A stretch of 64,000 nt of DNA, from the NCBI GenBank assembly GCA_001244265.2, contig CDLV01000018.1, positions 1 to 64,000 on the forward strand. Reading direction: 5' to 3'. Of the stretch, positions 4-63,730 are shown one piece after another; position 1 is the stretch's first letter, and each line of letters begins with the position of its first letter. Below the pieces are notes generated by a model. It ran no database searches. It was not told where the DNA came from and saw only the letters and a program-made list of their open reading frames with translations. The stretch comes from Microbotryum violaceum (Eukaryota). A program made the position numbers and the translations under genes.

Positions 4-358
4 TGTGACAAGTCCACTCTCAGCTCGGCAGAGGCGCCTCGGTCGGTGCGCGCACCCGCTAGCCCGCCCCCCTGCGCTGGGGACTTAGACGCGCCGGGTG
101 GATCCGTGCGCTGCCCACTAGGCCGCCCCCTTGCGGTGGGGACTTAGGCGCGCGCGACTGCCTTAGCGCGCTAGCAACTTCACGCCGCGACTGGCCTATC
201 CCAGCGGGGTCCCCTTTCTATTTCTTAGTTCCCTCTCACCACTTCTGTTCAACAATCGACCTCTCCTGACAGTAGTGTGATTGTCTCATAGGTATGCTGA
301 AATAGACACACTTCTGTTCAAAATCGACTCTCCTGACAGTAGTGGTGATTGTCTCATA
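4..358 (+). repeat. 5' LTR of Copia A1
   Basis: Matches 4896-5280 apart from several small deletions; terminal ~55-bp unit present twice. Confidence 0.93.
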
Positions 359-370
359 GGTTATTCGCCC
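359..370 (+). promoter_or_regulatory. Primer binding site (copia/Ty5-type, tRNA-iMet anticodon-arm complement)
   Basis: GGTTATTCGCCC abuts the LTR end; 10/12 match to GGTTATGAGCCC. Confidence 0.8.
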
Positions 371-387
371 ATCGACCTACCGCTGGC

Positions 388-6729
<6,342 letters not shown>

Positions 6730-11113: not shown

Positions 11114-11447
11114 TGTGAGGAATCCACTCTCCGCTCGGCTCAGGACTTAGGCGCGCAGAGCAAGCCTGGCGCACCGGCCCAGGACTTAGGCGCGCGCTTG
11201 CCTGGCGCACCGGCCCAGGACTTAGGCGCGCGGAACAAGCAAGGCGCATTGACTCAGGACTTAGGCGCGCGGAGCGAGCCAGGCGCACACAGCCCCAGGA
11301 CTTAGGCGCGCAGGGCGAGCCTGGGCCATTGGCTCAGCCCCAAGGTTCGCAGCCTGAGGACGTGAGGCGCGGCTCTCTTGTTGTTAGCTTCCTATTCATC
11401 ACTCTTGGCTATAACTACATCGCTGACGTAGTAGAGTTGATCGAATA
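11114..11447 (+). repeat. 3' LTR of Copia B1 (single terminal unit)
   Basis: TGTGAGGAATCC...GATCGAATA with tandem GACTTAGGCGCGC units. Confidence 0.92.
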
Positions 11448-12157
11448 CCGCCCCTGCCTGCGAGGTCCCTGACCAGGACTCGCTCGCACCCCCTGCCCCT
11501 GACCAAGGCTCCTCTGCTCGTGAGCTCCCTGACCCGGAATCACCTGCATCAAGCGCTTCTGACCAAGGTAGCTCTGACTCGGCCATCTCCACGCCTTGTC
11601 CTTATGAGACGATCACCACTACTGTCAGGAGAGGTTGATTGTTGAACAGAAGTGGTCTATTTCAGCATACCTATGAGACGATCACCACTACTGTCAGGAG
11701 AGGTTGATTGTTGAACAGAAGTGGTGAGAGGGAAGCTAAGAAACAGAAAGGGGACCCGCGCTGAGATAGGCCCAGTCGCGGGTGAAGTTGCTAGCGCGCT
11801 AAGGCAGTCGCGCGCGCCTAAGTCCCCACCGCAAGGGGGTGGCCTAGTGGGCACGCGCACGGATCCACCCGGCGCTGGCGCGCTGAGTCAGTCGCGCGCG
11901 TCTAAGTCCCCAGCGCAGGGGGCGGGCTAGCGGGTGCGCGCAACGACCGAGGCGCCTCTGCCGAGCTGAGAGTGGACTTGTCACCCCCCCCCCCCCCCCA
12001 CGCGAATGCGAGGCAGACCCAAGCCGTGGATGTCGAGTGCGCAAGCCGAGAGCATAGCAATGCATGGAAAAAATCTTTGGGCCAAGTGCCTTGGTAAAGA
12101 TGTCGGCCACCATGTTGCTTGTCCCCACGTGCGAAAGAGAAATCTCACCCCGATTCA

Positions 12158-13781
<1,624 letters not shown>

Positions 13782-14363
13782 GATTTCGCCGAGTGCGTGT
13801 GAAGAATCCACTCTCCGCTCGGCTCAGGACTTAGGCGCGCGGATCAAGCCGGGCGCATCGGCACAGGTCTTAGGCGCGCTGAGCGAGCCGGGCGCATCGG
13901 CAGAGGACTTAGGCGCGCGGAACGAGCCAGGCGCACCGGCTCAGGTCTTAGGCGCGCGGAGCGAGCTGGGCGCATCGGCAGAGGACTTAGGCGCGCGGAA
14001 CGGGCCAGGCGCACCGGCTCAGGACTTAGGCGCGCGGGCGCAGGACTTAGGCGCGCGGAGCGAGCCTGGGACTTAGGCGCGCCGGCTCAGGTCTTAGGCG
14101 CGCGGAGCGAGCCTGGGACTTAAGCGCAGGGAACGAGCCTGGCCCAAGGGTTAAGCCCAAGGGTCCCAGGCTGAGGACTTGAGGCGCGCGGCTCCCATAC
14201 TGTATGTTGTAATATTCATCACTCTTGGCTATAACTACATCGCTGACGTAGTAGAGTTGATCGAATAGGTTATAAGCCCAACGAGCTACCAGCCCGCCGC
14301 TCGCTCGCATTTTTCCTCGAGCCCAGCCACTCGAGCCGCCCACGTCCATCGCACCATCGCACA

Positions 14364-17300
14364 ATGGACAGCGACCCCACCACGCCTTCGTCCCCAGGGA
14401 CCCCAGCCCTCTTGCGTCTTCGATCAGCGATCAACTCGCTACCCTGCAGGCCCAGATCGCCGCCCTGCAGGCCTCGCAGCACCCTGCCGTCGCCGCCTCG
14501 CAGCCCCCTGCCGCCACCGCCTCGCAGCCCCCTGCCGCCACCGCCTCTACCGCCGCTGCCTCGCAGCCCACTGCCACTACCACCACCGCATCAAAAGTCG
14601 TCTTTCCCAAGCACGCTCGCCTAGATGGCTCCAAGTCATTCACAAACTGGTTGCGCCAACTCCGGCTCACGCTTCCAAATCAGATTCGTGGTTACGTCCT
14701 TGATGGAGTCGTTCCCCCGACGTGGACGGCAGACCAGCTGGCCGCTCGCGACGACGCCGCGCGGGAAATTATCGTCGGCTCGATCGACTCCGCCGACGTC
14801 TCCGCAACCCTCGATGCCATCCCAAGCGACGACCTGTCGGCGCCACGCATCTTCAACGCACTCAAGGCTCGTTTCGCACCGAACGACGCCACTCGCACTC
14901 TCGAATTATTCGCCCGCCTTTGGACTTTCGGAAGATGCCCGCCTCGGTCGAGGCCTATGACACCTGGCTGCGAGAATACATGGCCATCGCTCAAGAGATT
15001 CGCGACGCCAAGACATCACTGAACGACGTCCTCGCCACGCACATTCTCGCCATGGTACCGTCCTGTCTAGACAGCTTCCGTCTAACGTTCACGGACGAGC
15101 AGCGCGCCCAGCGCGAACTCCCGGAGCTCACGACTTTAACGGACCGTATCCGCGTTCAGCTCCGATCCGCCGGCCTCTCGACCTCGCATTCGGCCATGCT
15201 CGCCGACACCCCTCTTGCCCCGCCTGCCGCGCCCCCGCCACCGCCTGCGAGACTGCACTTCACGTGCAAAGCATCCGCCCACCGGCCCTTGCCGCCGCTG
15301 CCAAAAGCGAGGTCACTGGGCCCTCGACTGCAAGAACCGGGGTCAACAGACACGTACCAGCGACGACACCCAGGACGACTTGTCTTCTTCCACGGCTCAC
15401 CGACCGAACGTCGGCTATTTCGCCTCCTGCCTGTTTGCCCGCCGCCAACTCCCGACCGACGCCTTCGTCGTCGACTCGGGCGCGACGACTCACATGGTCG
15501 CCGACCGCTCCCTGTTCACGACTTATCGTCAAACGGCACACACCAAGATTGGCGCATTGCCGGCGGTATCACGGCCATTGGTATGGGGGATGTAGCGTTT
15601 GTTGCCAACACCGGACACCCGATCACGTTGCGCGTGTTCTGCACGCGCCGGGCCTTCACGTCAACCTTCTCTCCGTCTCTCGCCTTTGTGACACCGACCG
15701 CGTCCGACTCGCTTTCACCAGCGACAGCATCGACATCACCAAGGACGGCCAGGCCATCGCTCACGTACACGGGTTAACGACGGTCTCTACCTCCTGGACG
15801 CGGATCACACCAAATGTCAGCAGCTTGCCTTTCTCTCACGCTCTGAGTCTACCGTGCCCCTACTTACCCTCCACCGCTGCCTCGGCCATCTTGCTCCATC
15901 CTCTATACAGAAGATGATCGCTGTGGGTTTGCTGGACGGGTTTGGGGCCGGGTACAGTGACAAAGACGTAGAAGAGTTTGTTTGCAATGCTTGCCTTGGT
16001 TCCAAAGGCCATCGTCTTCCTTTTCCCGACTCGGAGTCACATTCCCCGAGAGACTTGGCCTCGTGCACAGCGATGTCCTGTCGTTCCCCACTCCGTCCTT
16101 GACCGGGAAACGCTATCTTGTCACCTTCCTTGACGACCACTCTCGCAAACTCTGGGCATACGCAATCGATCACAAAAGCGACGTCTTCCCGACCTTCCAG
16201 ACTTGGCTCGCCGAAGTGGAGTTAGAAACGAACGCGCGTTTACGGATCCTTCGCACCGACAACGGCGGCGAATACCGATCCAACGCGTTCACGGAGTTCT
16301 GCCAGTCCAGGGGCATTCGTCGCCAATACTCCATTCCATACACGCCTCAGCAAAACGGTCGTGCCGAACGTGTCAACCTCTCCATCGTCGAGGGCGTCCT
16401 CGCCCTCCTTGCCGACTCTCACCTGCCGGCCACCTTTTGGGACGAAGCGGCTGCATACTTCGTTTATTGCAAAAACAGGTGCTCACACTCAGCTTTGGCC
16501 AAACAGACCCCACAATTCGTTTGGAACGGCCAACGCACCACGGCCACCGCCCTTCACCCGTTCGGCTGCGCGGCCTGGCTCACAGTCGCGCCGGACCTTC
16601 GCAGCAAGCTCGACCCCAAGGCCGCGCGCGTGATTTTCACTGGTTACGACCTCGCCTCCAAGGCTTTCCGTTTCTTCGACCATTCCACCAACAAGGTTGT
16701 GCTTGGCCGAAATGCCACCTTCCTCGACGACGACTTCCCCGGCCTACCAGTCAGCACGCCCGTCGCTGCGGACGATGCCGAACGCCAGTTCATCATTCCC
16801 GCCGACACGCACGCCCCCGCCGACACGCACGCCCCGCCGACACGCCCGCCCCCGCCGTCAAGATGAGGACCCCACTAGTAAGGTCGGCGCACATGGACGT
16901 CTCATCCCCCTTGATGATTCTGCCATGAGCGCCGTTGACGTGGCCCCAGGGTACACTGGCGGATCCTTACTTAATTCTACAGATACCAGCCCCTCGTCGT
17001 CTCCGTCGTTCGCCCCGTTTTCGTCTCCCGCCACGTCCTCGGCCGGGGACCGTCCATCGATGACTCGGATGATCCGCTTGACCTCCTGAACTCCGACACC
17101 GCGGTTCGCCTCAACCTGATGGACGTACATCGATCCGACGACGACACCTCGGTGACACCCACGCCCGCCGCTGCCGCCTGGCAGCCCCCGATGACGACTC
17201 TCCTGATGAGATCGATTTCCTCTCTCGCCATCATCGCGCTTTCATCGCCACGGACGACGACGACCCCGCCCTCGAAGCCATTGAACCCGTCAAATCGATC

Positions 17301-18944
17301 ACTAGCGATCCCCAGACCTGGCGTGAAGCGATGTCCAGCGACGAGCACGACCTCTGGGCTCAAGCTGCCTCAGACGAGTTCACCGCCATGCGTGACGATT
17401 TCAAGGTGTTCACCATCGAGCCCCGCTCCTCAGTACCGCCGGGCGCCACCATCGTCACCTCCAAATTCGTCTGGAAGACCAAGCGCGATGCACAGGGTGA
17501 TATCACAGGGCGGAAGGCACGCCTTGTTGCACAGGGAAATCGCCAGCGCAACGGCATCGACTTCTCGGAGACGTTCGCACCCGTCGCCCGTTTCTCCTCC
17601 ATTCGCTGCCTTCTCGCCCTTGCCGCTGCCAATGGCTACCACGTTCATCAGGCCGACATCGACAAGGCTTACCTTCACGGCGAGCTCGATCACAATATCT
17701 GGATGACGACGCCACGAGGCTTCGACTTCCCGGGCGACAAGGTTCTCCGGCTGCGACGCTCGATCTACGGTCTTAAGCAGGCCGGTCGCATCTGGAATCG
17801 CCACATCGACACATCACTTCGAAGTCTTGGGTACAAGGCAACGGGCACTGATCACTGCATTTACTCTCGCATTGATGATCAGAAGCAGCCCCATTATATC
17901 GCATTGTATGTCGACGATCTCCTCATTGTCAGCCCCGCCCTCGACGAGATCGAGCGTGTCATCTACGGCCTCGAACAACGATACGGCGTCAAACGGCTCG
18001 GCCCCGCAGAATACATCCTCGGCATCCAGATTCGACGCCTGGAAGACGGCTCCATTGCTCTATCCCAGGAGCGCTACATCATGGACGTGCTCGCCCGCTT
18101 CCACTTCGACACCACAACACGCGGCGCTACGGTGCCAATGACGCCCGGCCTCTCGCTCACGGCTGTACCGGGTCAGGGAACGGAACGCATTCGGTCGTGG
18201 TACCTGCAAGCCATCGGCTCCCTCCTATACATTTCACTTGGCACTCGGCCCGACATTGCCTTCGCCGTCTCGTACCTGTCCCGGTTCGCCAACAACCCCG
18301 GCCGCCGCCATTGGATTGCCGTCAAACACGTCCTTCGCTACCTTCGCGCTACGTACCGCGATGAGCTACTCTACGCCTGTGGCCCCGCCAAAATTACGGG
18401 TGTGGTTGGCTATTCTGATGCGAACTGGGGTGCCTGCGTCGACACGTCCATCTCCACAATGGGCTTCGTCTTTTACTTGGCCGGCTCCGCCGTCTCTTGG
18501 TCATCGAAGCGTCAGACTCGGGTAGCAGATTCCACCACTGATGCCGAATACCTCGCCTTGTCGCATGCTGGTAAGGAAGCGATTTACCTTACGCAACTCC
18601 TCTCCGAGCTCCACGTTCGCCCGGTCGATGCAGCCCACATTTTCACCGACAACGAGGCCGCCGCCGCCGTCGCTCACGACCCCGTTCGCACTTCGGGCAC
18701 TCGACACATACGCCTCCGCGAGCACTTTGTCCGCGACATGGTCAACCAAGGCGAGATCTCTCTCTCACACGTCGGCACAGCGAACATGGTTGCAGACATA
18801 TTCACCAAGGCGCTAGGTCCCAAGATTTTCGGTGCACATTGCTATACTCTAGGTCTCCGGACGCGTCACCCACGGCTCAAGTCTACCTCGCGTTCGCGTG
18901 GGGGGGGTGTGAAGAATCCACTCTCCGCTCGGCTCAGGACTTAG
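14364..18944 (+). CDS. Copia B gag-pol polyprotein (frameshifted as assembled)
   Basis: ORF pieces with a zinc knuckle ([14 protein letters not shown]), DSGATTHM protease, integrase DDE, and a continuous RT-RH ORF at 17331-18944. Confidence 0.85.
16878..16982 (+). other. Conserved structured intron-like element (copy 3, family B)
   Basis: 105 nt; the 1-nt deletion lies in the predicted terminal loop. Confidence 0.68.
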
Positions 18945-19980
18945 GCGCGCGGATCAAGCCGGGCGCATCGGCACAGGTCTTAGGCGCGCTGAGCGAGCCG
19001 GGCGCATCGGCAGAGGACTTAGGCGCGCGGAACGAGCCAGGCGCACCGGCTCAGGTCTTAGGCGCGCGGAGCGAGCCGGGCGCATCGGCAGAGGACTTAG
19101 GCGCGCGGAACGGGCCAGGCGCACCGGCTCAGGACTTAGGCGCGCGGGCGCAGGACTTAGGCGCGCGGAGCGAGCCTGGGACTTAGGCGCGCCGGCTCAG
19201 GTCTTAGGCGCGCGGAGCGAGCCTGGGACTTAAGCGCAGGGAACGAGCCTGGCCCAAGGGTTAAGCCCAAGGGTCCCAGGCTGAGGACTTGAGGCGCGCG
19301 GCTCCCATACTGTATGTTGTAATATTCATCACTCTTGGCTATAACTACATCGCTGACGTAGTAGAGTTGATCGAATAGTGCGTTCCGTTTCGTTTTCCAG
19401 ACGAACTTGGACGTGACGATGGTCGCGCCCGTGGGTACCGTAGAGCGGTCCTCGATGGTGAAAACCTTGAAGTCGTCGCGCATGGAATTGAACTCGTCAT
19501 CGGCGGCCTTGGCCCACACTTCACGTTTGTCGCTCGACATTGCCTCGCGCCAGGTCTGTGGGTCGCTTGTGATGGACTTGACTGGCTGGATGGCCTCAGC
19601 GTCAGAGGTGTCGTCGTCGGTCGCGATGAAAGTGCGGTGGTGTCGGGTGAGGAAATTGATTTCGTCCGGCAATTCGTCACGAGAGTGGCGCCCAATGAGG
19701 TTGAGTTTGTCGGGCGACTCCTCAGCCGATGCGGGCTCGCGGAACGTGCTGAAGTCGGGGCGGTGCACGTCCGGTGGGTCGAGGCGAACCTGGGGCTGTG
19801 AGCTGATGAGGTCGAGAGGATCGGCGGAATATTCAGAGTCGGTTGGCAAGGCCGAGGGTGACGATGATGCAGGGAACGGCGGTGAGGGCGCAGGCGAGAG
19901 CGCAGGCGACGGCGACGAGGGCAGCTCAGGAGACGGTGAAGAGGACGGTGCAGGCGACGGTGACGAGGACGATTCGGCAT

Positions 19981-20086
19981 CTGTAGAATTAAGCAAGGTT
20001 CCGCCAGTGTACCCTGGGGCCACGTCAACGGCGCTCATGGCAGAATCATCAAGAGGGGATGAGACGTCCATGTGCGCCGACCTTAC
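19981..20086 (-). other. Conserved structured intron-like element (copy 4, family A)
   Basis: 106 nt; the variant ACCTTGCT still pairs with AGTAAGGT through a G-U wobble. Confidence 0.7.
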
Positions 20087-20825
20087 TAGTGGGGTCCATG
20101 TCTTGACAGGGTCTTGAGATTCGGCAATGGAGCGCTGGCACAGTGCGTGTCGGTGTCTTCCTCGGTGGAGTCGCCGAGTAAACCGGGGAAATCAGTGTCG
20201 AGGAAGCTGGCATTTCTGCCCAAAATGATCTTCTTAGTCGTTGTGTCGTAGAAACGGAAGGCTTTGGAAGCCAGGTCGTAGCCGGTGAAGAGAACACGAA
20301 CCGCCTTGGGGTCAAGTTTCGAGCGAAGTTCGGGCGCGACCGTGAGCCAAGCTGTGCAGCCGAACGGGTGAAGCGCCAAGGCGTGGGCACGCTTGCCCTG
20401 CCAGACGGAGTTCGGTGTTTCCTTGTCGAGGGCCGAGTGTTGACACAGATTCTTGCAGTATACGAAATAAGCTGCGGCCTCCTCCCAGAATGTCTTGGGT
20501 AAGTGTGCGTCCGCAAGAAGTGCAAGCACGCCTTCGACGATGGAACGATTGACCCGCTCTGCACGACCGTTCTGTTGAGGTGTTCGAGGGATAGAGTATT
20601 GTCGGCGTGTGCCGCGTGCCTTGCAGAAATCCGTGAACGCTTTCGAACGGTATTCGCCACCGTTGTCGGTTCGGAGGACCTTCAGTGTTGCACCCGTCTC
20701 GAGTTCGACTTCGGCAAGCCAAGTCTTGAACACGCCGAACACTTCGCTTTTGTGTCCGATTGCGTAGGCCCAGAGTTTGCGGGAGTAATCGTCGAGGAAC
20801 GTGACAAGGTACTGTTTGCCAGTCA

Positions 20826-21119
<294 letters not shown>

Positions 21120-22808
21120 TCAGCGTCCAGCAAGTAGAGCCTGTCGTCGAGTCTTGCGCCTTCAGCAATGTTGTTGCCGTCTTTGTCAATGTGTATGCCG
21201 TATTTCGTGAAGGCGACGCGGACGTCGTCGGTGTCGCAGAGACGTGAGACCGAGAGAAGGTTGACAGGCAGGCCTGGAGTGTGCAGCACACCAGTGAGCG
21301 TGATTGGATGACCCGAGGCGGCAACGAAGGCAATGTTTCCCGTCCCGATTGCGTTAATGCCCCCTGCAATACCACCAATCTTTGTAGGAGCGACGTGTCG
21401 ATAGTTCGTGAACAGTGACTTGTCCGAGACCATGTGCGAAGTGGCGCCTGAGTCAATGACGAAGGAGTTGGCGCGAAGCTGGCAACAATGAGCGAGAAGG
21501 CTGGTAGCGAGACATCCGACATGGTGTTGCGAGTTGGCGGTCGAGTTCGCCGTGTCGGCCTTTTTGCCGTTCTCGAGAGCCTTTTTGCAGTCGGAAGACC
21601 AGTGATTCTGCTTGCAGGAGCGACAGGGTCCTGGCGGCGGGTGTTTCGCTCTCACAGGGCACTCCGCCACACGGTGCGAAGGGCTGCGACAGGCAAGACA
21701 CTTGGGACGGGTAGGACGTGACGACGACGAGGCAAGAAGGGCCGATTGGGTGCTGGGGACGTTGGTGGACCGGAGTTGAACACGCATGCGGTCGGCGAGT
21801 GAATCGATGGCAGGGAGAGATCGTTGGGTGCGCTGTTCGTCGGTGAATGACGCCTTGAAGCTCTCGAGGGACGGGTGTGCAATGGTGAGGAGTGTGGCGA
21901 GAACATCATTGATAGTCGTCTTTGTATCGATGATTTCTTGCGCAATGGCTTTGAACTCCATGATCCAACCGTCGAATTCGCCAACGGTGCCGGGCATGGG
22001 CCGGAAACTCCATAGTCGTGAGAAGAGCTCGAGCGTGCGAGTGGCGTCATCCGGAGCATACCGCGATTTCAGCGTCGAATAGATTTTGGGCACTGTGAGG
22101 TCGGCGGTAGGGATTTGGTCGAGGACTGCCAAGACGTCGGCTGAGTCGATCGAGTTCGCTAGGAGCTCACGTGCCACGACATTGCGTGCAGAGCGGTGCG
22201 AAGGTGTCCAGTTGGCGGGCACGATCCCGTCGAGGACATATGAGCGGATGTCGTCCGCGAGGCAGAGGCGAAGCTGGCGTGTCCAGCTCGCAAACGTCTT
22301 GGGCCCATCCAAGCGTGCGTGCTTGGGAAAGGCGGTGCGAGAGGTGCCGGACGATGTGGCGGATGTGGCAGTGGTGAGACCCGACAGCAGCGACGTAAGT
22401 GCGGCGAGCTGTTTGGCGGGGATTGTTGGGTGGGCACCCGTCGTTAGGGGTGACGACGTGTCCATGCCAGCGGTAGGTCGATGGGCAAATAACCTATGAG
22501 ACGATCACCACAACTGTCAGGAGAGGTTGAGAGTTGAACAGCAGTGATGAAAAGGAAGCTAAGAAACAAAAGGGGGGCCCGCGCTGGGATAGGCCCAGCC
22601 GCGGGTGAACTTGCTAGGGCGCCGAGGCAGCTGCACGCGTCTAAGTCGCCACCTCAAGGGGGCGGCCTAGCGGCGCGCGCGCCGAGTCCGCTGGCGCCTG
22701 CTCGCTGAGGCAGTCGCGCGCGCCTAAGTCCCCACCGCAAGGGGGCGGGCTAGTGGGTGCGCGCGACGATCGAGGCGCCTCTGTCGAGCTGAGAGTGGAC
22801 TCTTCACA

Positions 22809-28000: not shown

Positions 28001-29159
28001 CGCACGAATGCGCAGCCACTGAGCCTCCTTTACCGCCAACTGATCCAACTGCGACTTGGCGAGAGCATACGCATCGCGCTCGGCCTCATTCATATGTTCA
28101 CGCGTGCCTCCAGCGCCTCCATGACGGATTGGTTCTCGGCCCGCAGTCGGCGCATGTCGGCACGAGTCGAGCGGTATCGTGCATGGCCAGCGACTGCAAC
28201 CGCCCGCAGAGCGGCGTCATAGACGTCGCCGAGCGGAGCGGTCCCCTCGAGCCTTCGATAGACCTCGTCGACGACCCCGGGAATCGATGCGACAAAGTCT
28301 TGATCGTCAAAGACCGTTGGGTTGAGCCTCGAAATGAAATCGCTCGTAGAGGGAAGAGAAAGGGGGGTTCGGCATCAGCGTTCAATGTAGGCAATGCGAA
28401 AGTCGCAACTACAGGTCTGTGGTCCGAGCAGGGCGCATCGAAAAGTGTGGAAGCGCTCAACAACCGGTTTGCCCAATTGCGCTGGACAAGGATATAATCG
28501 ATCCGCGACCACGAGCAGATTTCTCGTTTGTCCCCCCTACCAAGGTAGTGAGGGCGAGTGAATGCCGGGGTGATGGGATGGAGTTGTCGGATCGTGTTGA
28601 GTGGGTTGAATGCGATCTTTGACAGCAAGGTCTGCCAGTGCGATACAGGAGTCCAAGCGCGATCGGTGATGGCCACTCGGTCGACCGATACATCCGGACA
28701 ATCATTGAGATCGCCGGCCAAGATCCGAAGAGTCTTGGGCCCCGGAGCGGTGAAGTGCAGGAGCCCGTAGAAGTCGCGACGTTCTTCCCCCTTGACCGGC
28801 GCATACATGTTGATGATCTCGATATCGAGCTCCTCAAGACGAAACACCGAGCGCAGGATCCGACCGTCGAATTGAGGGGCTTCTGCAAACACGACCGGGG
28901 TAGAGGAGAGGAGGCGGCCCGCCAGAGGTGAGCCATCGGGTATAAGGGTAAGGACATGAGGTGCGAAACGAATACAAGCTCCTGGCCAAGCACTCTCGAA
29001 GCCTTCGCGCAACGCATTGTAGCTGAGGTGGTGCTCTTGCAGGAGAATGGCCGCAGGGGCCGGCCGAAGGGTTTTGAGATAGCGGATGATTTTGACTTGG
29101 TTGACTGCGTTCTTGATCGATCGGACGTTGAACGTCAACACGGTGAGGGACTCAATCAT
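25097..29159 (-). CDS. LINE family 1 ORF2: AP endonuclease, reverse transcriptase, CCHC finger (frameshifted as assembled)
   Basis: [50 protein letters not shown]...[10 protein letters not shown]. Confidence 0.88.
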
Positions 29160-29196
29160 GAATAAATTGGATCAGCGCCGCCCCCCTCGAATTCGG

Positions 29197-41906: not shown

Positions 41907-43339
41907 TGATCGGCGGACGCGTCTTTCCATCTGCGACTCTTGATCGAGGAGCTGGGCGCACGCGGCACCGAGTTCCCTGACGCGGCGCTCTTGTCTCTAG
42001 ACCAATCGTCGGCTTACGACCTCATCGAGCACGAATGGATCTTTGCCATCTTCGACGCTCTCGGCGCTCCTGCCGCCTTCCAACGCGTTCTGAGGATGCT
42101 CTACTCGGGTGACTCGACCACGGCACGATATATCATCAAAAACTTCTTGACTCCGCCGGTGCGGCTGACGTGTGGGCTCGGCCAAGGGGACCCGGCGTTG
42201 TCGTCGGTCTGGGATGTCGTGTTCCAGCCGTTCCTGGATGCTCTGCACCGTCGAGGCATTGCGCTGAACCTCTCGCTTCCTACCATTCACCCCTACCCAC
42301 AGAGCCGCGCCATTACATCTCTTGCGTTTGCTGATGACATCGTCGTCGCCGTCGCGGGCTCGGAGTCACTCACCTTGCTCAACGACCTGGCGCTCGACTG
42401 GAGGCTCGCAACCAATGGCCGGCTCAACACCGACAAGACCGTCGTACTACCCATTGGGTGTCGCTGGGAGGCTGGCGATCGTCTGCTCATCGTCAAGACC
42501 GAGGGCAAGTTGCTCGAGTGGATCGGCCTATCTTTCGACCCCACCGGCAACACCGAACTCGCCGACGTGAATCCTGTCGCACGGCTCGAAGTGGTGCTCG
42601 ATTCGGCCCGGGACCGGGGGCTCACACACCACACCCAAGCGTTCTACGTCAACCGATACACCATTCCCAAGATTCTGCACATCCTCTCTGCCGACATCCC
42701 ACCGCTCGAGGTCGTCAAGGAGCTTGATTGCATTCTCGTCGACTTTGTCCGCGGCGGCAAGAGGAGGTCGTGCTATGGCAAGGACGTCGTCTTCACACTG
42801 AGGTTCAAGGGGGGTCTTGGGGTCATGCGGATGCAGGACGTCGTCGACTCGGTTGCGGCACGCATCTGGGATGTGCTTCTTGGCGGTTCAGATGCGATCT
42901 GGCAGGGACTCGCGCACGCGGCAATTGTACGAGCCCATCCCGCCCCCGACTTTGACTTGGCAACTGATGCGTGGCCTTGCGACTACACTCCGATCCGAAC
43001 CGATCTAAACCCAAGATGGCAGGCCGTGTTGAAGGTACCATTGACGCACAATGCGCAAGTCAAGCCGAGGACGTTGACGCTCGCAAATCTTCTCGCTCTT
43101 CCGATCAAGTTGCACACCCTTCACTACCTACCAGGAGCACCAGCTGTGTCGCGATCACCCTACGACGCCAACTATGCTGCGTTTGCCAATTACACCAAGG
43201 TAGCGGACCTGTTTTGACGCAAGCTGTACCCGGGCGGGGGCTTTCATCTCTGGACGCCGCCGACGGATGTGGTTGTCAGCAACAGCAAATATGATCAATG
43301 GGGCCGCCCACAACGAGAGCACATTGTGGCATGGTACCA

Positions 43340-44821: not shown

Positions 44822-47729
44822 ACCAATCAAACGCATTCACGGAGTTCTGCAAGTCCAAGGGCATTCGTCGTCAATACTCTGTCCCTTACACACCTCAGCA
44901 AAACGGTTGTGCCAAACGTGTCAACCTCTCCATCGTCGAGGGCGTCCTCCCTCTTCTTGCTGACTCCCGTCTGCCGGCCACCTTTTGGGATGAAGCGGCT
45001 GCGTACTTCATTTATTGCAAAAACAGGTGCTCACACTCCGCTTTGGCCAAACAGACTCCAGAATCCGTTTGGAACGGCCAACGCACCACCGCCACCGCCC
45101 TCCAACCGTTCGGCTGCGCGGCCTGGCTCACGGTCACCCCGGACCTTCGCAGCAAGCTCGACCCCAAGGCCCGCGCGTGATCTTCACCGGTTACGACCTC
45201 GCCTCCAAGGCTTTCCGTTTCTTCGACCATTCCATCAACAAGATTGTACTTGACCAAAATGCCACCTTCCTCGACGACGACTTCCCCGGCCTGCCGGTCA
45301 ACACGCCCGTCAATGCGGACGACGCCGAACGTCAGTTCGTCATTCCCGCCGACACGCCCGCCCCCGCCGTCAAGACGAGGACCCCGCTAGTAAGGTCGGC
45401 GCACATGGATGTCTCATCCTCCCTTGATGATTCTGCCATGAGCGCCGTTGACGTGGCCCCAGGGTACACTGGCGGATCCTTACTTAATTCTACAGATACT
45501 AGCCCCTCGCCGTCTCCGTCGCTTGCCCCGTTCTCGTCGCCCGCCACCTCCTCGACCGGGGGACCGTCCCTCGACGACTCGGATGACCCGCTTGACCTCC
45601 TCAGCTCAGACACCGCGGTTTGCCTCAACCTGATGGATGTGCATCGATCCGACGACGACAACCTGGCGACACCCGCACCAGCCGTTGCCCCCGTTGGGCA
45701 GCCCTCCGATGACGACTCCCCCGATGAGATCGATTTCCTCTCTCGTCACCACCGCGCTTTCATCGCCACAGAAGACGACAACCCCACCCTCAACGCCATC
45801 GAGCCCGTCAAATCGATCACTAGCGACCCTCAGACCTGGCGTGAAGCAATGTCCAGCGACGAGCACGACATCTGGGCTCAGGCTGCCGCCGCCGAGTTCA
45901 CCGCCATGCGCGACGACTTCAAGGTGTTCACCATCGAACCTCGCTCATCTGTACCACCGGGCGCCACTATCGTCACCTCCAAATTTGTCTGGAAGACCAA
46001 GCGCGACGCACACGGTGATGTCACAGGGCGGAAGGCACGTCTCGTAGCGCAAGGTAACCGCCAGCGCGACGGCATTGACTTCTCGGAGACTTTCGCACCC
46101 ATCGCCCGTTTCTCCTCCATTCGCTGCCTCCTTGCTCTTGCCGCTACCAATGGTTATCACGTTCATCAGGCCGACATCGACAAGGCTTACCTCCACGGCG
46201 AGCTCGATCATGACATCTGGATGACGACGCCACAAGGTTTCGACTTCCCGAGCGATAAGGTTCTCCGGCTGCGGCGCTCAATCTACGGCCTCAAGCAGGC
46301 CGGTCGCATCTGGAATCGCCACATTGACACATCACTCAGGGGTCTAGGGTACAAGGCAACGGGCACTGATCACTGCATTTACTCTCGCATTGATGATCGG
46401 CAGCGGCCCCACTACATCGCCTTGTATGTCGACGATCTCCTCATTATCGGCCCCGCCCTCAACGAGATTGAACGTGTCATCTCCGGCCTTGAACAGCGAT
46501 ACGGCGTCAAACGACTTGGCCCCGCGGAGTACATTCTCGGCATCCAAATTTGCCGCCTGGACGACGGCTCCATTGCCCTATCCTAGGAGCGGTACATCAT
46601 GGACGTGCTTGCCCGCTTTCACTTCGACACCACAACACGCGGCGCTACGGTGCCAATGACGCCCGGCCTCTCGCTCACGGCCGTTCCGGGTCAGGGAACG
46701 GAGCACATTTGGTCGTGGTACCTACAGGCTATCGGCTCCCTCCTTTACATCTCCCTGGGCACTCGACCCGACATTGCTTTCGCCGTCTCGTACTTGTCCC
46801 GTTTCGCCAACAACCCCGGCCGCCGCCATTGGATTGCCGTCAAACACGTCTTTCGTTACCTTTGCGCCACGTACGGCGACGAGCTTCTCTACGCCCGCGG
46901 TCCAGCCAAAGTCACGGGTGTGGTCGGTTATTCCGACGCGAACTGGGGCGCCTGCGTTGACAAATCCATCTCGACAATGGGTTACGTCTTTTACTTGGCT
47001 GGCTCCGCCGTCTCTTGGTCGTTGAAGCGTCAGACTCGGGTAGCAGATTCCACCACCGATGCCGAGTACCTGGCCTTGTCGCACGCTGGTAAGGAAGCGA
47101 TCTACCTTACCCAACTCCTCTCCGAGCTCCACGTTCGCCCGATCGATGCAGCTCATATCTTCACCGACAACGAGGCCGCGGCCGCCGTCGCTCACGACCC
47201 CGTTCGCACCTCCGGCACCCGGCACATCCGCCTCCGCGAGCATTTTGTCCGCGACATGGTCAATCGAGGCGATATCTCCCTCTCACACCGTGGCACAGCA
47301 AACATGGTTGCGGACCTATTCACCAAAGCGCTAGGTCCCAAGATTTTTGGTACGCATTGCTATGCTCTAGGTCTCCGGACGCGGCACCCACGGCTCAAGT
47401 CTACCTTGCGTTCGCGTGGGGGGGAGGTGTGAGGAATCCACTCTCCGCTCGGCTCAGGACTTAGACGCGCGGAATGAGCCGGGCGCATCGGCTCAGGACT
47501 TAGGCGCGAGGAGCGAGCCTGGCGCCTCGGCTCACGACTTAGGCGCGCGTAGCGAGCCTGGCCCATTGGCTCAGCCCCGAGGTTCGCTAGCTGAGGACTT
47601 GGGGCGCGCGGCTCTTTTACTGTTAGCTTCCTATTCATCACTCTTGGCTATAACTACATCGCTGACGTAGTAGAGTTGATCGAATAGGTATGTTGAAATG
47701 AATTCATCACTCTTGGCTATAACTACATC
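44822..47729 (+). mobile_element. Copia family B, copy B3 (5'-truncated within integrase; nonsense in RT)
   Basis: IN-RT-RH colinear with B2; TAG ending the ORF at 46586; 3' LTR from 47428, cut inside its second terminal unit. Confidence 0.93.
45390..45495 (+). other. Conserved structured intron-like element (copy 5, family B)
   Basis: 106 nt; substitutions only in predicted loops. Confidence 0.7.
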
Positions 47730-48415
47730 CATAGGATGCCGAGGCGTGGTAGTAGTCGGCATACGGTGCAGTGAGACAGCAAAGGTAGGCCAGGCTTACA
47801 CGTTGGTTTCAGATGTCTACAAAAATACAACAAAAAAAGTCGGCGGGACAGCAAGGGAAGAGTGCTCGATCGCCGATTTGGCCTTTGGCCTTTACTAGGC
47901 TGTAACTCCTGCAGGAAACCACCGAGCACCGGCGGCCAGCGGCAATGCATCGACGGTTGCGGGCGAGGCGTTCCCCTCCAGCAACGGAAGAGGCAGCGGC
48001 TTGGGCTTGACACCAAGTACGATGTCCACGACTTTGTGGCCCATGAAGAGTAAGGTCATCTTTCTGTGCCATGACGCATAGTTGGACTCGTCCTTGAGTT
48101 TGACGAAGGAGAGCTTCTCGACCGTCTTGCCGTGAGGCAGTTCGGTAGCTGTGAATAGGCTCATAACCTATGATGGATTTGGGATGCTATGTATCTCGCA
48201 CTGAATGACACTTCAGTCAGAACTGTTGCGAGAGCGAACGGAGAAGAGACTAAGAAGTAAAGTGTCACCCAGGCGCACTAAACATACTAACAAGCTATTT
48301 ACTTGTAAGGCCAGGGCAAGATTTATAAAGCAAGAATATCTTCCGTTCAGCATATCAGAAATATAATCAGGAGTTCAAACCTAATCAGAATAGAAACTCT
48401 TCAGACTCTTAACCA
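47730..48415 (-). mobile_element. Copia family E 5' fragment (LTR, PBS, gag N-terminus)
   Basis: PBS GGTTATGAGCC at 48168-48158, LTR ending ...CATA at 48169, gag start MSLF...KLKDESNYASWHRKM; the outer LTR boundary is uncertain. Confidence 0.75.
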
Positions 48416-58428: not shown

Positions 58429-58817
58429 TCGTTCGCCTGTCGTCACGCAACGGAGTAATTGCGGCCCGTGACTTCGCGTGTGGGTTTGCCGGGAGTGTAC
58501 AAGAATAGTGAGCCGCCTCGAGGTCCCAGCAGGTATGATCGGTGGCGGATGCTCGTTCGATAGGTTATGAGCTGAGACGTGAACGATCCGTGACCGATGT
58601 GCTTGACTGCAGCAGGAGGCGGCAAGGCAGCGCGCTGCAGCGCGTGGAGGGCCAATCGCAGCCCGAGTGAACTTGGGTCGCTGGCAGGAGTATCGGCCTG
58701 TACTGGCAGCTGCTGGCACTCGCTGGCAGGGCGCGGCGCCGGCTTTTGTGAAAGCGCGCGCAGGCTCGCACGCTCGTGCCGCTCTTGCGCTTACTACTGA
58801 CCCACATAGACAGCAGC

Positions 58818-61721: not shown

Positions 61722-63730
61722 CTATTTCTTGGCTAGCTTGATGGTTGCATACGCGTCCCAGCCGATGTTTTCCAATGTCTGCACCTTTGCGAGAACTTCA
61801 TCCTCTAGTCCTACAGCATACTCCGCCAGAGCCGTGTTCAGCCTGCCCATTCCCCCTGCTGCCAGGATTCTGACAGCAAGGAGACCAGCATTCATCGAGT
61901 TGTTGATGGCCATTGCCGCGACAGGAATCCCGCGGGGCATCTGTACGATTGAGTACAGCGAGTCGACGCCGTCCAAGCTGGAGCCCTTGACAGGCACACC
62001 GATAACCGGCAAAATCGTTTCACTTGCAATCATGCCCGGTAAATGCGCCGCACCCCCAGCTCCAGCGATGATGACCCGGATCCCGCGACTTGCGGCGGTT
62101 CGAGCGAACTCGACCATGCGGCCAGGTGTCCGGTGAGCTGACACGATCGACAGCTCGAAGGGGATCTCGAACTGGCGAAGGACGCTGGAGGCGTTCAGCA
62201 TAATAGGCAGATCCGAATCCGAACCCATGACAATCGAGACAAGTGGTGATCGAGCCGATCGGGTCGCCTCCTGCCGTTGGGCCTTCTCGGCGTACTCCCC
62301 TGGTAAGAGTTCAACCAGTTGTTCGAGCTGCGAACGGACGATCTCATCGGACTCGCCGACTATTGTCACGTGACCCATCTTCCTGCCCTTGCGACACCCT
62401 GCCTTTCCATACAAGTGCACAGCTGCTCCGAGCTCGATGGCCTTTCTAACTACGCCAGACGGACCCATGAAATCTGACTGAGCTGAGGCCGACAACCCGA
62501 GCAGATTGAGCATGGCGGATGATCGTGGGAGAAACTGGATTGGCGGCAACGGCAGTGACAAAATCGCATAAAGGTGAGCGGTGTACTGCGAGATGGAGCA
62601 TGCTTCGATGGTATAATGGCCCGAGTTGTGCGGTCGTGGTGCGATTTCGTTGAGCAAGAGGCGGCCTGTTGACATTGAGGTGAGGTCAGCTTGGCATGCT
62701 ATCGCACAAGAATCTCAAAAATCCACGAGCAAAAACGGACCATCCGATAACCAAAACATCTCTACACCAAACACACCGACGGCCCCCTCCCCGAGGGCGT
62801 CAATGGCTCGCACGGCAAGCTCCTGTGCGCGCTCGTCCACCGGCTTCGCGGATATGCTGAACGCGCCCTTCTGTTTTGACCCGACCCCGTAATCACCGTC
62901 GCACAACGGTCGAAGGGGGGCATACACGATGTGGCAGATGCTATCCCGGTGAACAGTCTCGACTGCGGGATATGAACGCGTACTTCCATCGGCACCGCGG
63001 ACAACCATAACGGCGACCTCTTTGACGAAGGCGGCCCACTTTTCGGCGTAGAGGCGATCGGTCGGAGCTCTCGCGCCTTGAATCGTCAGCGACGAGTCCG
63101 GGATAAGGGCTTCCAAGGCGAGTTCAATGTCGTTCTCCGAGCGCAGCACGAAGTTGCCCTTGCCGTCGTAGGCGAGGTGTCGGGACTTCAGCATGAGAGG
63201 ATAGCCAAAATCCTTGGCCGCATCTCGCACCGAATCACGCAGGTCGGCCCGCGGGTCCACAGAGTCGGCGGCTGCGGCGCCCGTTCCCGTGATGGGCAAA
63301 AAAGGGGCGACCGCAATACCGCGCTCTTGGAGATAGAGTTTTTGTGTGTACTTGTCCTGAATCGTACGAATGACGACCGGAGCGGGGTAGATTCTGACGC
63401 CTTCACCCGAGCGCCCTCCGGTGGACGCGAAGTCGTGTTGCACCCGCTCCAGAGCAGCGATGTCGACGTGCTCAATCTCGATGGTCAGAATATCGACGTT
63501 TTGGGCGAGTTGCCGAATGTGCGACTCCGAGGTGAAGGGTCCATTCAGGTGGGAGAGAGGACCGGGCCCAGAGCCAGCCTGTGACGAAGTCGAAGCAAGC
63601 TGCGACAGAGGCAGCCGCTCGGGCGCCGACACTTGCTTAGCCGGTGCCCCTTCTTCTGGGTCGAGCACAATGATCGGGATAGACAGAGGCGATGCAGCCT
63701 GAAGGAGCATTCGCCCTAGTTGGCCACCAC
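61722..63730 (-). CDS. ADE2: Phosphoribosylaminoimidazole carboxylase (PurK-PurE fusion); first exon not resolved
   Basis: GGQLGRM, TIEIEHVD, LAYDGKGN, NEIAPRPHNSGH, RKMGH, MGSDSDL, SAHRTP, AGAGGAAHLPGM; intron at ~62671-62741; acceptor upstream of 63730. Confidence 0.96.

Follow-up and report, generated by a model that had tools for sequence, protein, structure and literature searches.

Does the end of a Ty1/Copia LTR in Microbotryum violaceum contain an intron, or does a duplicated stretch of DNA merely resemble one there? The whole 64,000-nt stretch analysed (contig CDLV01000018.1, positions 1–64,000; hereafter the window) opens with a nest of Ty1/Copia elements, in which a Copia element, A, lies at 4–5280 (+). 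Near the end of its 5′ LTR is a candidate and as yet unproven 68-nt intron, GTATGC..CTGAC..CATAG, at 292–359 (+). An earlier note on this DNA had proposed that removal of this segment regenerates both the LTR terminus and the PBS, leaving the element with an intron and with ends that remain usable.

The coding region of A (ORF 1340–4369, in a broken reading frame) contains the domains rve (residues 218–314), SH3_retrovirus (378–445) and RVT_2 (695–791); the integrase domain is upstream of the RVT_2-type reverse transcriptase, and the element is of the Ty1/Copia type. Its 5′ LTR (4–358, +; TGTGAC...CTCATA) has a two-unit form. A pyrimidine-rich block containing ..TTAGCTTCC.. (the pre-unit block) precedes unit 1 (240–290, +; 51 nt), which copies the LTR end and has a predicted hairpin. 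Unit 1 is followed by the 18-nt filler GGTATGCTGAAATAGACA (291–308, +), which holds the donor-like GTATGC, and by unit 2 (309–358, +; 50 nt), which is the true end of the LTR and has CTGAC at 332–336 (its A at 335). The PBS-like sequence GGTTATTCGCCC (359–370, +) comes next, and the gag ATG is at 388. The 3′ LTR (4896–5280, +) has a G-run PPT immediately upstream and likewise contains two units (5160–5211 and 5229–5280) around a filler (5212–5228). The 5′ and 3′ LTRs are 98.6% identical in aligned columns; between 4–358 and 4896–5280 there are only 5 substitutions, but also a 24-nt indel and ten indels of 1 nt. The ORFs of both A and a second family, B, are broken many times, and the many indels and broken frames mean either that the assembly is indel-prone or that the copies have decayed. 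The flanks of A (..TAC and AGTTA) are unmatched as a TSD, the left one being cut by the window edge; A is a recombinant mosaic, as is the split element DC described below. A search of Rfam with 1–600 gave no match at E ≤ 1, and a metagenome scan seeded with ATAGGTATGYTGAAAT returned 119 loci, in none of which the likeness to the LTR extended past the seed. These Copia elements are very abundant in anther-smut fungi.

The LTR end is indeed present twice around the filler, as units 240–290 and 309–358. BLAST aligned 240–293 with 309–361 at 94.5% identity over 55 columns, and the E value of 5e-16 shows that the duplication is not due to chance; a repeat search found exact 17-nt repeats at 261–277/328–344 and 277–293/345–361. 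The repeat, put at about 55 nt by the earlier note, is duplicated as claimed and comprises 50–52 nt of LTR plus GGT. The U5 duplication is absent from the TRF listing, the repeat having fewer than 2 copies. The segment 292–359 also reads as described: it is 68 nt long, runs from GTATGC through CTGAC to CATAG, and has a branch-like A 24 nt before its final G, which is the first PBS base (359). Its removal joins ..CTCATAG (285–291) to GTTATTCGCCC (360 onwards), giving the same string as 353–370. A small correction to the earlier note concerns this rebuilt end: the two units here differ by three 1-nt indels, so that unit 1 supplies no more than the final 14 nt of the LTR letter for letter.

LTRs in the window were inventoried by BLAST and motif scans. 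In family A, four of the five LTRs contain two units (A5 and A3, the 5′ and 3′ LTRs of A, and C and S) and one, D, contains a single unit. The solo LTR S (13399–13781, +; TSD GATTT) has two identical units (52/52). D (22495–22808, −), the 5′ LTR of a split element, DC, has one unit that runs straight into the PBS GGTTATTTGCCC. As the earlier note had it, S and D belong to the same subtype, with 302/313 positions identical (96.5%) and a difference of 69 nt of gap in total. C (11603–11985, −), with two units, is the 3′ LTR of DC. The DC element itself (A-type, 11601–22808, −) is split by two insertions 12 nt apart, the solo LTR S (TSD GATTT) and a 5.6-kb B element (TSD GTGCG). Although D and C belong to the two halves of one physical element, they are only 88.6% alike and of different subtypes, and the DC flanks, CAAAG and AGGAC, share no TSD. 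Relative to A, DC is a mosaic, with 82–100% identity per 250 nt and 0 mismatches over A coordinates 4001–4750, a pattern that points to recent gene conversion or recombination between elements. Because elements here are mosaics of lineages, recombination must be frequent; and because D resides in a recombinant element whose partner LTR is of another subtype with two units, it cannot show how its unit was lost.

Family B has coding DNA 64–77% identical to that of A and carries the U5 duplication in one of its four LTRs. The full B element (13798–19377; TSD GTGCG) has LTRs identical at 469/470 positions: the 5′ LTR (13798–14267, +) contains a filler-like GTATGTTGTAATAT followed by one unit, with no upstream unit, and the 3′ LTR lies at 18908–19377. 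In this element 14202–14268, the LTR end plus the first PBS base, is intron-like (GTATGT..CTGAC..TAG). Two further family B LTRs, both without 5′ LTRs, complete the set: B′ (11114–11447, +) has one unit and no filler, and B″ (47428–47729, +) has two units around the filler GGTATGTTGAAATGAAT, the second of which ends after 26 nt. As the duplication is found in both A and B, it is either old or mobile between lineages. Unit number is polymorphic in both families in steps of exactly one period, as seen for S versus D and for B″ in contrast to B′. Copy number also varies elsewhere in these LTRs: the family-B U3 (13819–14142, 18929–19252 and 11136–11324) holds arrays of a GGACTTAGGCGCGCGG-containing repeat with periods of 39/78 nt and up to 5.6 copies, and the GGACTTAGGCGCGCGG motif has 2–3 copies in A-family LTRs, differing in number between LTRs.

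GGTTAT.. stands directly after the LTR at 359, 14268 and 22494 (−), and a G-run precedes the start of each 3′ LTR. We take a PBS starting GGTTAT directly after the LTR to have Ty5-type letters. Ty5 is described as priming from half of an initiator tRNA (PMC5371799). ARAGORN found no tRNA genes in the window that could be set against the PBS-like sequence. An ATA/GGT junction between LTR and PBS occurs at all five sites of this PBS type in the window. The A and B versions differ at positions 7–8 from a canonical-looking form, GGTTATGAGC, which is found after ATA at 48163–48171 (−) and 58560–58568 (+). The site at 48163–48171 (−) is followed by a Copia-gag-like N-terminus, indicating a third Copia family, without the duplication.

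The units of any one LTR are closely alike, matching at 49/51, 51/52, 52/52 and 52/52 positions. Between the subtypes A3 and S, units match at 44/52 positions (8/52 differ), and between families at 35/52 (17/52 differ). By this comparison of sequences, the units of one LTR evidently evolve in concert. The filler common to both families makes independent duplications unlikely. Between A3 and B″, identity is 13/17 in the filler, 35/52 in the unit, 17/25 in the pre-unit block and 16/20 at the LTR start; the corresponding values between A3 and S are 15/17, 44/52, 21/25 and 18/20. With few LTRs compared, the filler is thus not clearly better conserved than its neighbours. Its first 14 nt are identical at 13/14 positions between families versus ~67% for the units, a difference that is not significant, and the filler may be under modest constraint. 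The expectation that GT, branch site and AG would be conserved above neighbouring bases was not borne out in this small sample, an outcome close to what the earlier note had itself named as refuting its proposal. Immediately before the PBS, each terminal unit is predicted to form a hairpin (in one case by pairing of TCACCACTTCTGT with ACAGTAGTGGTGA); such hairpins are predicted in 240–290, 309–358, 14216–14267 and 22546..22495, in both families and from differing sequences. Single-sequence folds gave weak z-scores (+0.55 to −2.88) and placed CTGAC at the hairpin edge. RNAalifold on 12 units returned no consensus structure from a MAFFT alignment that had family B out of register.

Nowhere in this GC-rich LTR is the AT content higher than in the filler, whose ATG is the only one between the pre-unit block and the gag start. 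This ATG opens an upstream ORF of 2–3 codons: A and S have ATG CTG AAA TAG, B″ has ATG TTG AAA TGA and B has ATG TTG TAA. From A to B″ the changes are Leu-to-Leu and stop-to-stop. Two 8-mers of the filler, GGTATGCT and GCTGAAAT, have 7 and 8 matches in the window versus 1.0 and 1.9 expected, all but one of which are in LTR fillers or at the A-family gag site 780–798. The A-family gag reads GCTGAAAT-TGC-GGTATGCT at 780–798, 5698–5716 and 22073..22055 (−). In the filler the two 8-mers overlap to give GGTATGCTGAAAT, and in gag they are 3 nt apart; family B gag lacks both. This sharing with gag fits a filler picked up by template jumps, and chance is also possible. Derivation of the filler from tRNA read-through or a decayed PBS copy was rejected, as it accounts for too little of the sequence, with only GGT.ATG matching.

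Host introns provided the standard against which the candidate was judged. A 541-aa 2-oxoglutarate dehydrogenase ORF in the window is 99% identical to a Microbotryum saponariae protein, which, with the closest named relative of ADE2 (below), assigns the window to an anther smut or to very near kin. Alignment of the M. saponariae protein to the window yielded eight KGD1 introns. These are 68–195 nt long, with the donors GTGCGT, GTGAGT (three times), GTACGT, GTCAGT, GTATAT and GTAAGC, branch sites of the CTAAC/CTGAC kind 9–31 nt from the end, and CAG (seven) or TAG (one) as acceptors. The segment 292–359 fits this host grammar in donor, branch site, acceptor and length. A scan of 127,864 positions on both strands of the window for 68-nt segments of the form GTNNG..CTRAY..YAG, with CTRAY 8–40 nt from the end, gave only four hits: 292, 19769 and two sites in KGD1, one of which is a proven intron while the other overlaps a further intron of that gene. 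With so few positions matching, the intron-like form is not trivial.

The individual signals can, however, be traced to other properties of these LTRs. The repeat offers three GT..AG registers (272, 275 and 292), of which only that at 292 is intron-like, and it is made by ATA/GGT: the AG/GT register arises because the LTR ends in ATA and the PBS starts with GGT, as in every element of this PBS type. Recovery of the one-unit form upon removal of one period is true of any tandem duplication, so that the “splice-proof” property claimed for this LTR end reduces to an AG/GT register within a repeat. All 13 full units contain CTGAC and the terminal ..ATA, those of D and B′ (one-unit LTRs that lack a donor) among them; the conservation of CTGAC can therefore not be credited to the candidate intron, and ATAG/G is kept equally in D and B′. 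The donor-like GTATG is retained in all filler variants, those of A, S, B″ and the B element. Overall, the intron-like appearance of 292–359 seems to be mostly a by-product of features that these LTRs have anyway.

Contigs from four sequencing runs, none of them recorded as RNA, were aligned to 1–1500 (likeness 90, share 2), three of the runs (X12, X16 and X18) being guessed to be RNA and one (X14) being of DNA type. The contigs were built from 31-letter words, presumably the Logan word size. No 291>360 joint was found in X12, X16 or X18 contigs, whose 31-letter words cannot resolve near-identical units of 50–52 nt. A single one-period joint, 265>332, was found in X14 at a depth of 3.2, the one-unit form having hardly any word of its own. 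Because such words cannot separate the one-unit from the two-unit form, neither the absence of 291>360 nor the rarity of 265>332 is informative. In X12 and X16 contigs, the filler is flanked by unit sequence on both sides, and its occurrence in these two runs argues against the two-unit form having been created by assembly of the window. Contigs also joined 361 back to 238 across the filler (361>238), at a depth of 421.2 in X12 and 47.5 in X16; this joint reflects either a shifted alignment of the two-unit form or a three-unit form. Depth rose near 200–250 in two of the runs guessed to be RNA; at 201–350 it was ~3.5-fold that at 1–100 in X12 and X16 and ~1.0 in X14, and the filler contig was as deep as the leader in X12 and X16; as contig depths, both values are hints only.

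Taken together, we lean towards an old, homogenised tandem duplication of the U5 end that is kept uniform by unequal template switching. The duplication would cover the last ~52 nt of the LTR, with its predicted hairpin, and the first PBS bases, with a short filler at the joint, and would most likely have arisen by template switching of reverse transcriptase. Lying upstream of the PBS, it would be copied into both LTRs in each cycle and thereby inherited; unequal template switching or recombination between the units would keep them alike, and occasional exact removal of one period would give rise to one-unit LTRs. The units stand head to tail around a filler, are homogenised, and vary in number between related LTRs by exactly one period, as in a tandem repeat made and resolved by template switching or unequal recombination. 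Template switching by reverse transcriptase is known to delete and duplicate direct repeats in retroviruses and LTR elements, and the present case resembles those in having head-to-tail repeats in a reverse-transcribed region, precise loss of one period and variable copy number. It differs in that the repeat spans the U5/PBS border, is homogenised and occurs in two Copia families, and in that the mechanism is deduced. Several observations sit less well with a plain duplication: 292–359 is a good intron by host rules, of a pattern seen at only 4/127,864 positions; GTATG is kept in every filler variant, and the first 14 nt of the filler agree at 13/14 positions between families (not significant); and the B element retains filler and one unit after loss of the upstream unit, which a neutral relic need not do. 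The switching origin and the homogenising are also steps that we infer. That the repeat was collapsed or expanded during assembly or sequencing has a negligible probability. The ten 1-nt indels between the 5′ and 3′ LTRs of A hint at indel-prone sequence, but four separate LTRs of the window, as well as contigs of other runs, share the two-unit form and its filler, which an artefact fails to account for.

A well-formed though unlikely reading is that 292–359 is a real spliceosomal 5′-UTR intron, with transcription starting upstream of 292 and the filler and unit 2 being spliced out. Because unit 1 repeats the LTR end, the spliced RNA would keep the U5 end and PBS, its reverse transcription would yield one-unit copies (D and B′, for instance), and the intron would aid mRNA accumulation in an intron-dependent host. 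GTATGC, CTGAC at 24 nt, TAG and the length of 68 nt all fall within the range of the eight host introns, the combination is rare in the window (4/127,864), GTATG is kept and one-unit LTRs occur in both families, and splicing would rid the leader of its single upstream ATG. In Cryptococcus, mRNA accumulation is documented to depend on introns (PMC3744415); the host here is Microbotryum. Against splicing, the AG/GT is provided by the LTR/PBS junction, CTGAC is also present in donor-less LTRs, the signals are not conserved above their neighbours, and no spliced junction was seen among contigs, which had no power to show one. One-unit LTRs are explained equally well by template switching or recombination between the repeats. 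The B element, moreover, has an intron-like segment without a back-up unit. Progeny of spliced RNA would lose the intron for good, so that the design would be inherited via unspliced RNA only and regenerated ends would help only dead-end copies; if spliced RNA is unpackaged, the rebuilt ends would bring nothing. The extra unit would at most be a fail-safe, by which spliced templates yield viable intron-less copies. A version built on this, which we regard as quite improbable, is that filler plus unit 2 form a working 5′-UTR intron common to the two Copia families and that the one-unit D and B′ are retro-copies of spliced RNA. The lone intron of the B element would then give a spliced RNA that serves as messenger only, and in A, S and B″ the upstream U5 copy would leave the spliced RNA a competent template. 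It is similarly doubtful that some other cis function preserves the filler and that the duplication doubles a functional module, the candidates being an AT-rich core-promoter/TSS element ahead of each unit, a poly(A) signal at the R/U5 border and an upstream ORF that tunes gag. We assume the filler to resemble promoter and poly(A) motifs, and it is the most AT-rich part of a GC-rich LTR. The architectures pre-unit plus unit (D, B′), filler plus unit (B) and pre-unit plus unit plus filler plus unit (A, S, B″) all occur, as if pre-unit and filler were interchangeable, each being an AT-rich block directly preceding a unit; the Leu-to-Leu and stop-to-stop changes of the upstream ORF from A to B″ would also suit such a function. 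Only three filler variants bear on this, and one of them, that of B, encodes a shorter peptide, whose sequence is therefore not conserved.

Splicing of LTR-element RNA as such has precedents. Drosophila copia splices its own RNA. So do Arabidopsis Ty1/Copia elements and BARE, for which introns in the pol region are described as giving rise to gag RNA (PMC5580714, PMC3735527). These elements belong to the same superfamily as A and B, and their splicing separates translated from genomic RNA; their introns lie in the pol region, none being inside U5 or rebuilding an LTR end. The major splice donors of retroviruses lie in R in deltaretroviruses and foamy viruses and after the PBS in HIV and MLV. 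The candidate shares with these a donor-like site in the 5′ leader; retroviral acceptors, in contrast, are kilobases downstream, whereas both sites of the candidate are within U5 plus the first PBS base. A 5′-UTR intron in a terminal repeat, retained in genomic copies, is described for Penelope and Chlamys elements (PMC8557442). They represent another class, which uses target-primed reverse transcription, and retention there is put down to this mechanism and not to a duplicated end. Introns within the LTRs of maize LTR retrotransposons, supported by long reads, are presented in passages of 10.64898/2026.05.08.723830 as the first such evidence. The maize LTRs are long, with introns averaging 1,303 bp and non-coding RNAs, and these passages tie the introns neither to the PBS nor to a rebuilt LTR end.

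LTR introns are not mentioned in the main-text parts of two Microbotryum genome and transposable-element papers (PMC4469406, PMC10502011), and our literature searches returned no description of a U5-confined intron that regenerates the LTR end. If spliced, the segment would thus be the first case found of an intron wholly inside U5 that leaves the priming and integration ends intact. One-unit copies would then be a natural marker for counting the progeny of spliced RNA, and expression of the transposon would be tied to two processes of basidiomycetes, spliceosome-coupled silencing and the dependence of mRNA accumulation on introns. If unspliced, it serves as a warning that any duplication across an ..ATA/GGT.. 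junction creates an AG/GT register and may be mistaken for an intron. In both cases, a homogenised U5 duplication in two Copia families of anther smuts is a character for tracing lineages and recombination.

Elsewhere in the window, the ADE2 gene (63710..61935), whose best named relative is from another microbotryomycete, is split into two ORFs by an in-frame TGA at 62715–62717 (−). The ~70 nt around this TGA have the form GTCCGT..CTGAC..CAG and lack a counterpart in homologues; the stop probably lies within a short in-frame intron, a nonsense allele being the less likely explanation. ORFs with Exo_endo_phos and RVT_1 domains at 28098–29171 (−) and 41910–43217 (+) are pieces of non-LTR retroelements, and the 24–47 kb portion of the window is largely repeat-derived.
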